Position numbers and translations under genes: made by a program
Part shown: positions 54,656 through 57,014 of the stretch, one piece after another
Position numbering within the stretch: the first letter of the stretch is position 1
How the letters are laid out: each line of letters starts with the position of its first letter
Source of the DNA: Polyangiales bacterium
GTDB lineage: Bacteria > Myxococcota_A > Polyangia > Polyangiales > Ga0077539
NCBI GenBank assembly: GCA_046351535.1
Contig: JAXLYG010000005.1
Location: 165,334 to 229,333 of the forward strand
DNA: 64,000 nucleotides
Direction: 5' to 3'
The notes under the pieces: generated by a model
Seen by the model: the letters and a program-made list of their open reading frames with translations, nothing else
Databases searched by the model: none
Told to the model about the DNA's origin: nothing

Positions 54656-54729
54656 GATCCGGAACCTCGAGAGGCAGAGGCGGCGGCTCTTACCCGTCGA
54701 TGTGAGGGTTCAAGTCCCTTCGGATCTAC
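54656..54729 (+). tRNA. tRNA-Lys(CTT)-like, 74 nt, followed by encoded CCA; one extra nt between acceptor and D-stem
   Basis: Acceptor GGATCCG/CGGATCT, anticodon arm GGCGG-CTCTTAC-CCGTC, T-arm GAGGG-TTCAAGT-CCCTT, manual fold. Confidence 0.4.
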
Positions 54730-54787
54730 CAACCGCACCGCGCAGCGCGCGCTGCGGGCAACGCCTGGCACGAGGGTGTTGCGAATT

Positions 54788-54858
54788 GCCCGATGGTCCA
54801 ACGGCACGATGGCCGGCTCTGAACCGGTTGATCCTGGTTCGAATCCAGGTCGGGCAAC
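54788..54858 (+). tRNA. tRNA-Gln(CTG)
   Basis: Acceptor TGCCCGA/TCGGGCA, D-loop AACGGCA, anticodon loop CTCTGAA, T-arm CCTGG-TTCGAAT-CCAGG. Confidence 0.5.
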
Positions 54859-54999
54859 CGCTCGATGGCGGAGGGGGACTCGTCCCCGCGGCTCCGCGGA
54901 TCTCTGACAACACGGGGTTGATGAGCGTCAGGCGCGACACCATGCGCGCCGCGACGCCAACGAAGGCGCCCTCCGCCATGATGAGGGAGGGCGCGCACT

Positions 55000-55072
55000 G
55001 CGGGGTAGCTCAAAGGTAGAGCGGTCGGCTGTTAACCGGCGTCCGTGTGGGTTCGATTCCCTCCCTCGCAGC
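55000..55072 (+). tRNA. tRNA-Asn(GTT), CCA encoded
   Basis: Acceptor TGCGGGG/CCTCGCA, D-arm GCTC-AAAGGTA-GAGC, anticodon loop CTGTTAA, T-loop TTCGATT (one T-stem mismatch). Confidence 0.6.
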
Positions 55073-55083
55073 CATCGAAAACG

Positions 55084-55154
55084 GGGCCATCGTCCAAAGG
55101 GAAGATGTCTGCATGGCATGCAGGAGATGAGGGTTCGACTCCCTCTGGTTCCAC
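55084..55154 (+). tRNA. tRNA-like (Ala GGC anticodon loop ATGGCAT) with degenerate D-arm
   Basis: Acceptor GGGGCCA/TGGTTCC (2 GU), T-arm GAGGG-TTCGACT-CCCTC; no canonical D-stem. Confidence 0.3.
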
Positions 55155-55170
55155 CGTCTGATTCACTTCG

Positions 55171-55243
55171 CCCATCGAGGCTGTCGGAAGAAACCGTCGG
55201 GCTACGAACTCGAAGTGCGTGGTTCAACTCCACGGATGGGCGC
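55171..55243 (+). tRNA. tRNA-Arg(ACG)-like with aberrant D region
   Basis: Acceptor GCCCATC/GATGGGC, anticodon arm TCGGG-CTACGAA-CTCGA, T-arm CGTGG-TTCAACT-CCACG. Confidence 0.4.
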
Positions 55244-55261
55244 TCTCTGCCTCTCGCCTCG

Positions 55262-55334
55262 ACCCTGTCATCTAACGGCTCAGGATGACTGGTTCTCAGC
55301 CAGCTCATACGGGTTCGAATCCCGTCAGGGTCGC
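55262..55334 (+). tRNA. tRNA-Glu(CTC)-like, D-stem directly abuts acceptor
   Basis: Acceptor GACCCTG/CAGGGTC, anticodon loop TTCTCAG, T-arm ACGGG-TTCGAAT-CCCGT. Confidence 0.35.
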
Positions 55335-55350
55335 CGCCTCGCCGCCTCCG

Positions 55351-55423
55351 CGGACGTAGTGTTCAACAGCAGCACCTCACGGTGCCATCGTGAGAGATCG
55401 GGTGCAAATCCCGACGCCCGCAC
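55351..55423 (+). tRNA. tRNA-Gly(GCC)-like with noncanonical T-loop TGCAAAT (G55) and D-loop lacking GG
   Basis: Acceptor GCGGACG/CGCCCGC (one mismatch), anticodon arm TCACG-GTGCCAT-CGTGA, T-arm TCGGG-TGCAAAT-CCCGA. Confidence 0.4.
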
Positions 55424-55441
55424 CGCTTCTGTGCCTCTCTG

Positions 55442-55514
55442 GTCCCGTCGTTCAGTGGTCTAGGACGGCCGATTGTCGATCGGTCAACGCGGGTTCGATT
55501 CCCGTCGGGACCGC
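55442..55514 (+). tRNA. tRNA-Asp(GTC)
   Basis: Acceptor GGTCCCG/CGGGACC, D-loop AGTGGTCTA, anticodon arm GCCGA-TTGTCGA-TCGGT, T-loop TTCGATT. Confidence 0.7.
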
Positions 55515-55533
55515 CTTGTGCCTCGCCTCCTTC

Positions 55534-55605
55534 GTGGTCCGATCAGCATCGAGCCCTGTCTTACAAACAAGGCGAACCGGGGGCGGCACCCGGGGCCACG
55601 ACCAT
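55534..55605 (+). tRNA. Minimal tRNA-like (Val TAC anticodon loop CTTACAA), 69 nt + encoded CCA, mini D-arm, T-loop GGCGGCA
   Basis: Acceptor CGTGGTC(C)/GGCCACG, 7-bp anticodon stem GCCCTGT/ACAAGGC, T-like arm CCGGG-GGCGGCA-CCCGG. Confidence 0.3.
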
Positions 55606-55606
55606 C

Positions 55607-55679
55607 AGCGTGTAGCTCAGTCAGAAGAGCGCCTGCTTCGGGAGCAGGAGGCCGCGGGGGCAGGTCCCGCCTCGCTGAC
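55607..55679 (+). tRNA. tRNA-Pro(CGG)-like with T-loop GGCAGGT and D-loop lacking GG
   Basis: Acceptor CAGCGTG/CTCGCTG (one mismatch), D-arm GCTC-AGTCAGAA-GAGC, anticodon arm CCTGC-TTCGGGA-GCAGG. Confidence 0.4.
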
Positions 55680-55710
55680 CGCGTCGCAAGACGCTTCGCC
55701 TCGCATCACG

Positions 55711-55783
55711 GCCCTGTCGTCTAGAGGTTCAAGATCGCTGGCCCTCAACCAGCAGAGGCGGGTTCGAGTCCCGTCAGGGTCGC
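55711..55783 (+). tRNA. tRNA-Glu(CTC) (anticodon loop CCCTCAA, C33)
   Basis: Acceptor GGCCCTG/CAGGGTC, D-arm GTCT-AGAGGTTCA-AGAT, T-arm GCGGG-TTCGAGT-CCCGT. Confidence 0.5.
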
Positions 55784-55796
55784 CGTTTCAGCATCG

Positions 55797-55869
55797 CGGA
55801 CGTAGTGTTCAACAGCAGCACATCGCGGCCCCATCGCGAGAGCTCGGGTGCAAATCCCGACGTCCGCAC
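55797..55869 (+). tRNA. tRNA-Gly(CCC)-like, T-loop TGCAAAT, D-loop lacking GG
   Basis: Acceptor GCGGACG/CGTCCGC perfect; anticodon arm TCGCG-GCCCCAT-CGCGA. Confidence 0.4.
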
Positions 55870-55913
55870 CGAGCGCGCACGCGGCGCCGTCTGAGCGTTG
55901 CGCATTCCATCAG

Positions 55914-55985
55914 GTCCCGTCGTTCAACGGATAGGACAGCCGATTGTCGATCGGCCAACGCGGGTTCGATTCCCGTCGGGACCGC
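55914..55985 (+). tRNA. tRNA-Asp(GTC), second copy
   Basis: Acceptor GGTCCCG/CGGGACC, D-loop AACGGATA, anticodon arm GCCGA-TTGTCGA-TCGGC. Confidence 0.7.
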
Positions 55986-56001
55986 CTTCTGTCTCGCTCT
56001 G

Positions 56002-56074
56002 CCCATCGAGGCTGTCGGAAGAAACCATCGGGTGGCGAACCCGAAATGCGTGGTTCAACTCCACGGATGGGCGC
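56002..56074 (+). tRNA. tRNA-Arg-like (anticodon loop TGGCGAA, GCG with G33), duplicate of 55171 unit
   Basis: Same acceptor and T-arm as 55171-55243; anticodon arm TCGGG-TGGCGAA-CCCGA. Confidence 0.35.
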
Positions 56075-56092
56075 TCTCTGCCTCTCGCCTCG

Positions 56093-56165
56093 ACCCTGTC
56101 ATCTAACGGCTCAGGATGCCTGGTTCTCAGCCAGTTCATACGGGTTCGAATCCCGTCAGGGTCGC
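56093..56165 (+). tRNA. tRNA-Glu(CTC)-like, duplicate of 55262 unit
   Basis: Near-identical to 55262-55334 (2 substitutions). Confidence 0.35.
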
Positions 56166-56181
56166 CGCCTCATCGCCTCCG

Positions 56182-56254
56182 CGGACGTAGTGTTCAACAG
56201 CAGCACCTCACAGTGCCATCGTGAGAGATCGGGTGCAAATCCCGACGCCCGCAC
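56182..56254 (+). tRNA. tRNA-Gly(GCC)-like, duplicate of 55351 unit (anticodon stem weakened by G to A)
   Basis: Near-identical to 55351-55423; T-loop TGCAAAT. Confidence 0.35.
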
Positions 56255-56272
56255 CGCTTCTGCGTCTCTCTG

Positions 56273-56577
56273 GTCCCGTCGTTCAGTGGTCTAGCTCTAC
56301 TGTCCCGATGGAGCCTGGGCCTTCACGCCGCGTGTTGAAACACGCGGCAGGGAAGGCACACGGTGAGCATCCTGCGAAAAGTCCCGCTTCGCAGGACTCC
56401 CAATCGGAGCCTCGTGCGCGAGTCCCGCGGAGCGGGACTTCGTTCAGATCGATCTCGAACTGCCTTCCCTGCCGCGTGTTTCAACACGGCGTGGGGGCGC
56501 AGCGCTCGTCCGGGACAGTAGAGCTAGGACGGCCGATTGTCGATCGGTCAACGCGGGTTCGATTCCCGTCGGGACCG
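56273..56577 (+). pseudogene. tRNA-Asp(GTC) third copy, disrupted in the D-loop by a 229-bp MITE
   Basis: 5' part GGTCCCGTCGTTCAGTGGTCTAG and 3' part GACGGCCGATTGTCGATCGGTCAACGCGGGTTCGATTCCCGTCGGGACC match intact copy 55442-55514 exactly, separated by insertion 56296-56524 flanked by CTAG duplication. Confidence 0.65.
56296..56524. mobile_element. Non-autonomous MITE (229 bp): 13-bp perfect terminal inverted repeats CTCTACTGTCCCG / CGGGACAGTAGAG, 4-bp CTAG target-site duplication, long internal inverted repeats
   Basis: Comparison of interrupted versus intact tRNA-Asp copies defines exact insertion boundaries; internal IR 56329-56360 vs 56462-56491; no ORF. Confidence 0.7.
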
Positions 56578-56597
56578 CCTTGTGCCTCGCCTCCTTC

Positions 56598-56669
56598 GTG
56601 GTCCGATCAGCATCGAGCCCTGTCTTACAAACAAGGCGAACCGGGGGCGGCACCCGGGGCCACGACCAT
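56598..56669 (+). tRNA. Minimal tRNA-like (Val TAC loop), duplicate of 55534 unit, encoded CCA
   Basis: Identical to 55534-55605. Confidence 0.3.
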
Positions 56670-56670
56670 C

Positions 56671-56746
56671 AGTGTGTAGCTCAGCGAGCAGAGCGCCGGT
56701 TCGGGGGACCGGAGGCCGCGGGGGCGGAACCCGCCACACTGACCAT
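56671..56746 (+). tRNA. tRNA-Pro(GGG)-like, T-loop GGCGGAA, encoded CCA
   Basis: Acceptor CAGTGTG/CACACTG perfect, D-arm GCTC-AGCGAGCA-GAGC, anticodon arm CCGGT-TCGGGGG-ACCGG. Confidence 0.4.
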
Positions 56747-56756
56747 TCTCCTCATG

Positions 56757-56827
56757 GGGCGGTAGTTCAACGGTAGAACGCCTGACTGTGGCCCAGGCAA
56801 TATGGGTTCGATTCCCGTCCGTCCCTC
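56757..56827 (+). tRNA. tRNA-His(GTG)
   Basis: Acceptor GGGGCGG/CCGTCCC, D-arm GTTC-AACGGTA-GAAC, anticodon loop CTGTGGC, T-arm ATGGG-TTCGATT-CCCGT. Confidence 0.6.
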
Positions 56828-56857
56828 TGTTTTCAAGGCGCTTCACAGCCTCTCATG

Positions 56858-56930
56858 GCCCTGTCGTCTAATGGTAGAAGATCGCGGATTTTCACCCCGC
56901 GGACACGGGTTCGATTCCCGTCAGGGCTGC
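56858..56930 (+). tRNA. tRNA-Glu(TTC)
   Basis: Acceptor GGCCCTG/CAGGGCT, D-arm GTCT-AATGGTAGA-AGAT, anticodon loop TTTTCAC, T-arm ACGGG-TTCGATT-CCCGT. Confidence 0.65.
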
Positions 56931-56943
56931 CATGATTCTCGTG

Positions 56944-57014
56944 CGGGTATGGTGTAGCAGCAGCACCGGTGGCCTCCGCCCACCATGCGCGGGTGCGAAT
57001 CCCGCTGCCCGCTC
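56944..57014 (+). tRNA. tRNA-Gly(TCC)-like, T-loop TGCGAAT (G55), D-loop AGCAGCA lacking GG
   Basis: Acceptor GCGGGTA/TGCCCGC, anticodon arm GGTGG-CCTCCGC-CCACC. Confidence 0.4.

Follow-up and report, generated by a model that had tools for sequence, protein, structure and literature searches.

A dense array of 23 transfer RNA genes, about one third of them with a variant elbow, in a clade of uncultured Polyangiales

What is a closely packed run of transfer RNA (tRNA) genes, many of them oddly shaped, doing between a transporter gene and an aminotransferase gene of a Polyangiales bacterium, and where did it come from? The locus lies on contig JAXLYG010000005.1 of assembly GCA_046351535.1, from which a stretch of 64,000 nucleotides (positions 165,334 to 229,333, hereafter the window; all coordinates refer to it unless another locus is named) was analysed. 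The array occupies 54655-57116 on the + strand (2462 bp, 9.3 units per kb) and comprises 23 units, 22 intact and one Asp(GTC) gene interrupted by a 229-bp insertion. Our reading is that it is probably a lineage-specific, co-transcribed, chromosomal tRNA operon of uncultured Polyangiales from activated sludge, likely auxiliary to the remaining tRNA genes of the genome and used in translation.

With default settings, ARAGORN called 16 tRNAs, all on the + strand of 54655-57116, and none in the other 61.5 kb of the window; the Rfam tRNA model found 15 array units at or above its gathering score. At a 90% threshold ARAGORN called 20 units, and the three beyond these are the split Asp(GTC) gene and two Val(TAC)-like units recognized by manual folding and conservation. 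Together they make up Lys, Gln, Asn, Ala, two Arg, four Glu, four Gly, three Asp, two Val-like, two Pro, His, and Thr, separated by spacers of 1 to 139 nt. Rfam scores are low (28 to 61 bits); no match at all was obtained for five of the intact units (Lys, Gly(GCC) copy 1, Thr, and both Val-like), and the two Arg units give at most a weak tRNA-Sec match. As default tools call only 15 to 16 of the 23 units, the array would escape a standard survey. A first-pass annotation, made from the letters alone, had described a dense one-strand array of about 22 tRNA or tRNA-like units at 54656-57014. ARAGORN, Rfam, and manual folds bear this out, with 22 units inside that interval and a Thr(CGT) gene (57044-57116) beyond its end, and every anticodon listed there was reproduced. 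Its remark that redundant and structurally aberrant members give the locus the look of published tRNA arrays also holds, and the relaxed ARAGORN run that it proposed as a check called 20 units rather than a few.

The same annotation had dismissed several open reading frames (ORFs) overlapping the array as artefacts, and in agreement with this none of the overlapping ORFs has a Pfam match and none passes the coding test, a GC content at third codon positions (GC3) above 0.85, that real genes of this 72%-GC genome pass. Public gene calls on related loci include a 291-aa ORF over the start of the array (L001, 8571-9446) and a 941-aa ORF between the aminotransferase gene and the array (L037, 11262-14087), both devoid of Pfam matches. 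Arrays of poorly detected tRNAs attract spurious protein annotations, and with about one third of the units missed by default tRNA finders, surveys will undercount them.

That these units are maintained as tRNAs is seen from their covariation among relatives. The comparison took in 85 distinct units from seven arrays, with the four stems anchored on the ARAGORN annotation and alignments built family by family, since mixed-family MAFFT/RNAalifold alignments misaligned the anticodon arms. Standard pairs filled 95.9% of 1785 stem cells, against 44% when partners were shuffled within units, and in 66 family-by-position cases both sides had changed with the pair retained, so the canonical cloverleaf with stems of 7, 4, 5, and 5 bp is held by covariation. 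This extends to Gly, the least canonical family, in which 96.1% of cells pair, 13 of 21 pairs have changed on both sides (reached by 0 of 500 shuffles), and pairing drops to 32 to 53% when partners are slid. Among Pro units, 167 of 168 cells pair and five stem positions are compensated; Gln(CTG) orthologues have seven compensated positions.

Elements by which synthetases recognize their tRNAs are retained as well. The G3:U70 pair of tRNA-Ala, together with A73, is kept in the window, L011, and L033, even though in L033 pairs 4-69 and 5-68 are both swapped; likewise kept are C1:G72 and A73 in Pro, A73 in Lys and the Val-like units, G73 in Asp and Asn, and A20 in Arg. Among orthologues and paralogues, anticodon switches stay synonymous (Pro CGG/GGG/TGG, Val-like TAC/CAC, Arg ACG/GCG, Gly GCC/CCC/TCC). 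Covariation, identity elements, and synonymous anticodons are the signature of selection for folding, charging, and decoding, which excludes a decay product. The idea that the array is decaying repeat or pseudogene debris without function could draw on the mismatches, C33, or transposon insertion of some units and on the third of units that prediction tools miss. It is effectively refuted by the paired stems (96% of cells, 66 compensated positions) and by identity elements and synonymous anticodons that persist across genomes whose flanks have diverged by 15 to 25%. Nor is the array a decay product peculiar to one genome, an outcome that the first-pass annotation had allowed for, because it is conserved in relatives and its stems covary. 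As a separate observation, the anticodon arm of Glu(CTC) at L031 869-943 (GGCCGA-TTCTCGA-TCGGC) and that of Asp(GTC) at 55441-55515 of the window (GGCCGA-TTGTCGA-TCGGT) differ essentially in C34 versus G34, a hint that Glu and Asp units have undergone gene conversion or alloacceptor switching.

The array was found at the same locus, between dctA and the aminotransferase gene, in at least seven related uncultured Polyangiales genomes. Syntenic arrays that diverge together with their flanks occur in L001, L011, L025, L031, L037, and L044, with fragments in L032 and L033; by BLAST, flank identity to the window is 95 to 98% for L011 and 72 to 87%, mostly 79 to 86%, for L025 and L031. The aminotransferase itself is encoded identically on activated-sludge metagenome contigs, and its named homologues are Polyangiales and Polyangium proteins. 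When one genome per species (185,579 species) was scanned for the Gly-unit motif, only three metagenome-assembled genomes (MAGs) among the Myxococcota matched (L011, L025, and L031), each with a similar array, and a metagenome scan with the Arg-unit motif returned only two short contigs, L032 and L033, both starting the same series of units. Following homologues of the aminotransferase outward, the array is present at 85 to 86% protein identity (L037, L044) and not at the locus in relatives at 79% (L035/L036), 77% (L043), and 69% (the complete genome of Polyangium aurulentum, L034); L042 (83%) was left out because its contig ends before the expected position of the array. Arrays range from about 11 units (L031) to 23 (the window) and share the core order Lys(CTT)-Gln(CTG)-Asn(GTT)-Arg(ACG)-...Pro-His-Glu-Gly-...Asp. 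Presence at one locus across relatives marks the array as a stable feature of a genus- or family-level clade and no genome-specific accident. The empty locus in the nearest outgroups and the detection of the Gly module in only three Myxococcota among the species representatives scanned argue for an array gained on top of an otherwise normal tRNA complement.

Array content follows the codon usage of the host, as judged from 28 window ORFs. Codons read by the array dominate their families, namely AAG (98%), CAG (95%), AAC (98%), GAC (91%), CAC (95%), GAG (89%), GGC (64%), CGC (70%), CCC (57%) with CCG (37%), and ACG (56%). Copy number also tracks usage, with three Glu(CTC) and one Glu(TTC) for GAG at 89% and GAA at 11%, and two Gly(GCC), one Gly(CCC), and one Gly(TCC) for GGC at 64%, GGG at 21%, and GGA at 10%. 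Growth by duplication is visible in the block Arg-Glu(CTC)-Gly(GCC)-Asp-Val-like-Pro, which is present twice at 92 to 93% identity (repeats D1 and D4; D1 at 92%) with a period of 831 bp, or 1064 bp including the insertion. L011 has no inner Glu-Gly-Asp-Val in the first block, and L025, L031, L037, and L044 differ in the number and order of units. Unequal recombination between near-identical units (Arg, Pro) is the simplest cause of this gain and loss of blocks.

From these features a working model can be drawn. All units would be transcribed as one precursor from an AT-rich, direct-repeat region upstream of tRNA-Lys, cleaved by RNase P and 3' processing enzymes, and completed by the CCA-adding enzyme. 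The products would be charged by their cognate synthetases and would decode the dominant G/C-ending codons of the host for 12 amino acids, most probably supplementing a dispersed canonical set rather than replacing it. The array itself would evolve by tandem duplication and deletion of multi-tRNA blocks and by anticodon switching within amino-acid families.

Whether the array is auxiliary or is itself the housekeeping set depends on what else the genome encodes. The 12 amino acids covered are polar, charged, or small, with no unit for Leu, Ser, Tyr, Ile, Met, Phe, Trp, or Cys, and the window array also has no Lys(TTT), Gln(TTG), Pro(TGG), Ala(TGC/CGC), or Thr(GGT/TGT). With so incomplete a set of isoacceptors, further tRNA genes must exist elsewhere in the genome. 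We consider it unlikely that the array is a housekeeping operon, an "accretive" gathering of normal tRNA genes that forms the principal or only source of these isoacceptors. Such an operon would account for vertical inheritance and synteny, for anticodons and copy numbers tuned to host codons, for purifying selection on identity elements and stems, and for the absence of mobile-element genes nearby, and periodic blocks are typical of accretive arrays (PMC8421152). It is harder to reconcile with a locus that is empty in slightly more distant relatives (79% aminotransferase identity) and in P. aurulentum, with an orthologous Pro unit that reads CGG or TGG depending on the genome, and with missing isoacceptors that demand other tRNA genes anyway. 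The strain also survives with one Asp copy disrupted, and mismatches, C33, a tRNA-His lacking G-1, and low model scores would be unusual for sole-copy genes.

A specialised, non-housekeeping set, as the first-pass annotation had proposed, is plausible and is the reading we prefer; redundancy is evidently tolerated, one Asp copy being disrupted and several copies carrying A.C mismatches or C33. Several points nevertheless weigh against an auxiliary operon used in translation. Only 64 kb are in view, so the array could hold the sole genes for Asn, Asp, His, Gly, and others and thus be housekeeping; the codon fit is drawn from only 28 ORFs and a few tRNA families; and a sigma-70 scan of the conserved upstream block found no consensus site. 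Features that would be expected to impair function in standard systems are also present, namely G8 or A8 for U8, C33 in two window units, tRNA-His without G-1:C73, and a Val-like unit whose D-loop has only 4 nt and which is accepted by no predictor.

The array holds two elbow classes. Gln, Asn, Ala, Glu, Asp, His, Lys, and Arg units have the usual D-loop GG and T-loop TTC. All Gly, Pro, Thr, and Val-like units instead carry A-G in the D-loop and N-G-C in the T-loop (TGCRAAT, TGCAAGT, GGCRGNN), so that 9 of the 23 window units (four Gly, two Pro, one Thr, and two Val-like), about one third, depart from the canonical G18-G19 and U54-U55-C56 and have A18 and G55. Across arrays, T55 occurs with GG in 57 of 57 units and G55 occurs with AG, and no GG, in 26 of 29, the other three being an ambiguous "AGG". 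The variant units keep the G19-C56 pair, the exposed face that the ribosome and RNase P recognize (PMC4810234). Pseudouridine at position 55 (Psi55) and its contact with G18 have been described as universally conserved (PMC4810234, PMC7912444); with G55, none of the variant units can carry Psi55, and in those of the Pro and Val-like families U54 is missing too. In Pro, positions 54 and 58 are G/G or A/A rather than U/A.

Four of the variant units are Gly genes. Gly(GCC) copy 1 (55350-55424; ARAGORN at the 90% threshold only) has the D-loop TCAACAGCA, the T-loop TGCAAAT, A73, and an A5.C68 mismatch, and copy 2 (56181-56255; Rfam 29.9 bits, ARAGORN at 90%) has an additional A.C mismatch in the anticodon stem. 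Gly(CCC) (55796-55870; Rfam 40.1 bits, ARAGORN at 90%) carries C33 for U33 in its anticodon loop GCCCCAT, a position that is U33 in the L037 orthologue. Gly(TCC) (56943-57015; ARAGORN, Rfam 48.1 bits, U73) has the D-loop AGCAGCA and the T-loop TGCGAAT, and shares an identical D-arm/T-arm module with tRNA-Gly(TCC) of Patescibacteria. Pro(CGG) (55606-55680; ARAGORN, Rfam 51.2 bits, C1:G72, A73) combines the D-loop AGTCAGAA with the T-loop GGCAGGT, and Pro(GGG) (56670-56745; Rfam 43.9 bits, ARAGORN at 90%, CCA encoded) has the T-loop GGCGGAA and C33 in the loop TCGGGGG, again U33 in L037. Thr(CGT), called by default ARAGORN with no Rfam match, has the T-loop TGCAAGT and A8, and is kept in L011, L025, L037, and L044 with a compensated acceptor pair. 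The two Val(TAC)-like units (55533-55604 and 56597-56668, identical, 72 nt), which no prediction tool detects and which were folded manually, consist of a 7-bp acceptor stem, a mini D-arm CGAT-CAGC-ATCG, the T-loop GGCGGCA (G54 G55 C56), A73, and CCA. They recur in L011, L025, L033, L037, and L044, with CAC, also a Val anticodon, replacing TAC in L025, L037, and L044. In L037 and L044 the acceptor stem is wholly different yet paired, and a C-G to T-A covariation separates these two.

The A18/G55 combination is not confined to Polyangiales. Many Patescibacteria MAGs have it in tRNA genes for Gly(TCC), His, Pro, Cys, and Phe, and it was also found in one Verrucomicrobia Lys gene and in nearly every member of an array in a Verrucomicrobiia MAG. 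The Patescibacteria genes (among L004-L030; for example L010 3510-3583 and L019 6650-6721) are dispersed, with the D-arm GGTGTAGCAGCAGCAC and the T-arm GGGTGCAAATCCC, and neighbouring tRNA genes have normal GG/TTC elbows. The Verrucomicrobiia array (L020 4623-6710, + strand, DASXDM010000040) is unrelated and has about 13 tRNA genes, with Ser, Ile, Phe, Ala, Thr, and His among them; nearly all of its members have a G55-type T-loop (TGCGATT, AGCGTTA, CGCGATA, and others) and a D-loop without GG. When only tRNAs of the Patescibacteria and Verrucomicrobia loci that the motif had not picked are considered, all 44 with T55 have GG, and 7 of the 10 with G55 have AG. Full-text literature searches for A18 together with G55 returned nothing, and the sole published parallel found is the TGC or TGT T-loop of staphylococcal non-proteogenic tRNA-Gly (PMC7826273). 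It is tempting, if a long shot, to see in A18/G55 with G19-C56 retained a distinct and so far unrecognised structural class of bacterial tRNA, which in the Polyangiales operon would form a second pool free of Psi55 (and, in Pro and Val-like units, of 5-methyluridine at position 54), insulated from elbow-reading enzymes or toxins and perhaps derived from a Patescibacteria-like donor before being tuned to host codons. The locus would be of greater interest if the variant elbow defined such a functionally separate pool. As natural covariation at G18-Psi55, spanning four amino-acid families here and recurring in other phyla, A18/G55 offers a testable handle on which parts of the elbow matter to the ribosome, RNase P, TruB, and TrmA.

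A role off the ribosome must also be weighed, with the variant units serving as aminoacyl donors, or protecting the cell from tRNA-cleaving toxins as decoys or spares. The amino acids Lys, Gln, Glu, Asn, Asp, His, and Arg, all represented in the array, overlap the known targets of anticodon nucleases, and tRNA-dependent secondary metabolism is abundant in myxobacteria. The replacement of TTC by TGC in the T-loop is, moreover, the signature of Staphylococcus aureus non-proteogenic tRNA-Gly (PMC7826273). The variant elbow, however, spans four amino-acid families and sits beside canonical-elbow units of the same operon, and it occurs in apparently ordinary, dispersed Patescibacteria tRNA-Gly, His, Pro, Cys, and Phe genes that presumably serve translation. 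With no Fem, MprF, cyclodipeptide-synthase, or toxin genes in the window, and with copy number tracking codon usage, we regard such a role as very improbable and favour use of the array in translation.

The first-pass annotation had further named horizontal acquisition as one of two readings. As a recent event this is not supported, given that in at least seven Polyangiales genomes the array keeps its locus and has diverged in step with its flanks, that no mobile genes lie around it, and that it fits host codons. No integrase, transposase, phage, or plasmid genes were found in the 64-kb window, whose gene content is that of an ordinary chromosome, with multihaem cytochromes, ClpB, YchF, a sigma-54 activator, and lysyl oxidases among the products. 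Compared by BLAST with phage and plasmid records, the complete array showed generic single-tRNA similarity only, and five scans of viral contigs (2.9 million contigs), with unit motifs or the inserted element, gave no or chance matches; one viral-contig match, L040, was rejected as a tRNA because it is a short hairpin. GC content falls to 63 to 65% over the array from 70 to 75% elsewhere in the window, a dip that stems from the tRNA genes and the AT-rich upstream region, so it is no signal of foreign DNA and leaves recent transfer unsupported.

A more ancient acquisition at the base of the clade, perhaps of the variant-elbow units, is possible in view of the empty locus in outgroups and of a D/T module that also occurs in Patescibacteria. 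A stronger version, that the cluster or its variant-elbow members came as an L-array, a type known for sporadic, horizontal spread, from a phage, mobile element, or distant (for example Patescibacteria-like) bacterium and were later domesticated, appears doubtful to us. The array is confined to a shallow clade at a synteny breakpoint, its unit sequences diverge from standard models, its GC content is below that of the flanks, and its rare D-arm/T-arm module (GTGTAGCAGCAGCAC ... GGGTGCRAATCCCG) is also found in Patescibacteria tRNA-Gly, His, and Pro and in Verrucomicrobia tRNAs. Gly(TCC) of L025 is, by hand count, about 92% identical to Patescibacteria Gly(TCC) outside the anticodon stem; this similarity is inflated by acceptor stems of tRNA-Gly(UCC) that are conserved across bacteria. 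Against such an origin, the 64 kb hold no integrase, transposase, or phage genes, none of the 2.9 million viral contigs or the phage and plasmid records holds related units, the C34 anticodons and copy numbers suit a 72%-GC host rather than a donor of 31 to 59% GC (the Patescibacteria loci), the GC dip is expected from tRNA genes anyway, and the array is periodic, as L-arrays rarely are (PMC8421152). Within the clade it is vertical and syntenic, yet it is missing from the locus in outgroups.

The units with a canonical elbow complete the array. Lys(CTT) (54655-54731; ARAGORN default, no Rfam match, A73, CCA encoded) is non-canonical in that a 3-nt G-A-A connector replaces U8-N9; it is kept in seven arrays, among which an anticodon-stem pair has switched from G-C to C-G. 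It is followed by Gln(CTG) (54787-54859; ARAGORN, Rfam 56.6 bits, U1:A72), Asn(GTT) (54999-55074; ARAGORN, 55.1 bits, canonical, CCA encoded), and Ala(GGC) (55083-55155; ARAGORN, 48.9 bits, with G3:U70 and A73). Arg(ACG) (55170-55243; ARAGORN, with only a weak tRNA-Sec match of 25.6 bits in Rfam) has G8 for U8 and one D-stem mismatch, with A20 and G73 present, and in the L037 orthologue the D-stem is fully paired through compensating changes. Its paralogue Arg(GCG) (56001-56074; ARAGORN, repeat D1) opens duplicated block B. Glu(CTC) copy 1 (55261-55335; ARAGORN, 50.1 bits, repeats D1/D3) stands at the start of duplicated block A, copy 2 (55710-55784; ARAGORN, 48.5 bits) is a different isodecoder, and copy 3 (56092-56166; ARAGORN, 51.2 bits) and Glu(TTC) (56857-56932; ARAGORN, 54 bits, CCA encoded) follow. 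Asp(GTC) is represented by copy 1 (ARAGORN, 59.5 bits, canonical elbow, G73), copy 2 (55913-55986; ARAGORN, 58.1 bits), and copy 3 (56272-56579), recognized from its sequence and an Rfam score of 28.4 bits on the 3' part, which is split in the D-loop into a 5' part (56272-56294) and a 3' part (56524-56579) and is intact in L001. His(GTG) (56756-56827; ARAGORN, 61.2 bits) has no encoded G-1, U73 for C73, and a conserved A31.C39 mismatch. Unlike bacterial tRNA-His, with its encoded G-1 paired to C73, the unit has T, C, or A at -1 and U at 73 (A in L031 and L032) in six genomes. Over the whole array, CCA is encoded in 6 of the 22 intact units and CC followed by G or T in 13, and the canonical U8 and U33 are replaced by G8 in Lys and Arg, A8 in Thr, and C33 in Gly(CCC) and Pro(GGG) of the window.

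The insertion that splits Asp copy 3 resembles a miniature inverted-repeat transposable element (MITE). It spans 229 bp (56295-56523, inverted repeats I1/I2) within the D-loop and is missing from L011 and from L001, a contig 98.8% identical. Its 13-bp terminal inverted repeats, CTCTACTGTCCCG, are perfect, its target duplication is the 4-bp CTAG, and its internal hairpin arms are 69 nt long. No second copy was found in the window (which matched only its own two ends), in plasmids, or in viral contigs. Disruption of Asp copy 3 in this strain only means that at least that copy is dispensable.

A spacer of 139 nt between Gln and Asn (54860-54998, + strand) appears structured, with an invariant core TCTCTGACAA and no Rfam match. 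It measures 130 to 185 nt in the window, L011, L025, L033, L037, and L044, with partly compensated hairpins, and is absent in L031 and L032 (16 nt). A hammerhead-like TGATGAG in this spacer was rejected because the motif is not conserved.

Upstream, the last 110 bp or so before tRNA-Lys are AT-rich and conserved in all arrays. An alignment of six arrays delimits this segment at 54540-54654 (+ strand), and its blocks recur in L037 and L044. Within it lie two pairs of direct repeats (54570-54640), GAAACAAA-N5-GAAACAAAC and AGATCGACG-N11-AGATnCGACG, as well as an invariant CAGACCGCGAAG, and we infer that the segment is a putative promoter/operator and operon leader. No + strand terminator was predicted inside the array, which is consistent with a single transcription unit. 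The approximately 950 bp from dctA to tRNA-Lys showed no coding signal by GC3 and no Rfam match at permissive thresholds. Within this interval, L025, L031, and L032 share with the window a conserved non-coding stretch (54058-54339) that has neither an ORF of coding-like GC3 nor an Rfam match, and a terminator-like hairpin with a T-run (54310-54340, + strand) about 300 bp upstream of the array. Together these may represent an unannotated small RNA or leader.

Both flanking genes had been named correctly in the first-pass annotation. On one side lies an SDF/DctA-type transporter (sodium:dicarboxylate symporter, DctA/GltP type; 52399-53892, - strand; Pfam PF00375, E=2.7e-112), whose true start is probably about 65 codons downstream of the longest-ORF start; the L001 gene call is 432 aa long. 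On the other is a class I/II aminotransferase (57129-58277, - strand; Pfam PF00155, E=1.2e-62), which is convergent with the array and served as the synteny anchor.

Further from the array, the window encodes a 133-nt tRNA-like RNA (2469-2601, + strand; Rfam tRNA, 43.4 bits) with canonical acceptor, D, and T arms and a 74-nt insert in place of the anticodon arm, directly upstream of a TROVE-domain (Ro60/Rsr) gene (2738-4444, + strand). It resembles the tRNA mimics among bacterial Y RNAs, those of the YrlA type, and sits beside rsr; the Rfam YrlA model gave no match to it. A related motif, CAGTGAG..GAC.GGTTACTTC, recurs about 80 nt downstream of this RNA. The Ro60 orthologue shares the window with a gene for a 913-aa protein like the Major Vault Protein, with shoulder and repeat domains (30630-33371, + strand), which is followed by a gene for a VWA-domain protein (33444-34682, + strand).

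How does the array compare with known systems? Arrays of tRNA genes are already known, and their origin and purpose are debated. Tran et al. (2016) define a tRNA array unit as at least 20 tRNA genes per region at 2 or more per kb, and the Polyangiales array, with 23 when non-canonical units are counted and 9.3 per kb, belongs among them. The main texts of the array surveys (PMC4758250, PMC5966550) name no Myxococcota, Deltaproteobacteria, or Sorangium, and the phylum is without a reported array in the literature searched. In the L-array of PCC 7120 (Santamaria-Gomez et al. 2021, PMC8421152; TrcR repressor, PMC10272220), as here, about 20 to 26 co-oriented tRNA genes form one putative operon with redundant isodecoders, aberrant members, upstream direct repeats, and mostly no encoded CCA, and the suggested role is an auxiliary pool beside the housekeeping set. 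L-arrays are, however, phylogenetically scattered, linked to plasmids and homing endonucleases, spread by horizontal transfer, and rarely periodic (PMC8421152), whereas the Polyangiales array is chromosomal, syntenic in its clade, and clearly periodic through block duplication; unlike L-arrays, it covers only 12 amino acids and is tuned to host codons. With A-arrays (PMC8421152) and the array units of Firmicutes, Mycobacterium, and Acidithiobacillus (Tran et al. 2016, PMC4758250; Morgado & Vicente 2018, PMC5966550) it shares a repetitive pattern, growth in situ by duplication and recombination, and added redundancy of core isoacceptors. Those arrays consist of canonical tRNAs, whereas one third of the units here have a non-standard tertiary core. 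In the terms of PMC8421152, the Polyangiales array grows like an accretive array and is as long as an L-array.

Two further systems resemble it in part. The non-proteogenic tRNA-Gly of S. aureus and S. epidermidis (PMC7826273) likewise have TGC in the T-loop (G55) and no Psi55, and provide Gly isoacceptors beyond translational need; of the TGC or TGT that replaces TTC there, all array Gly units have TGC. The staphylococcal set is confined to Gly(UCC), is dedicated to peptidoglycan transferases of the Fem type, and shows weak binding to EF-Tu and the ribosome (PMC7826273), whereas G55 in the array occurs in Gly with three anticodons and in Pro, Thr, and Val-like units, always with A18, and the window has no fem-like genes. 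The tRNA clusters of Caulobacter phiCbK-like phages, the best phage BLAST matches, are also dense and on one strand with a Pro(CGG)-Pro(GGG) pair; the similarity is that of generic tRNA-Pro (74 to 78%), and the phage tRNAs have canonical GG/TTC elbows and encoded CCA. Set beside these systems, the array is a clear case of vertical inheritance, codon adaptation, and continuing growth by block duplication, and its novelty lies in the Polyangiales lineage, in its being vertical and codon-adapted, and most of all in an A18/G55 elbow used systematically by four amino-acid families.

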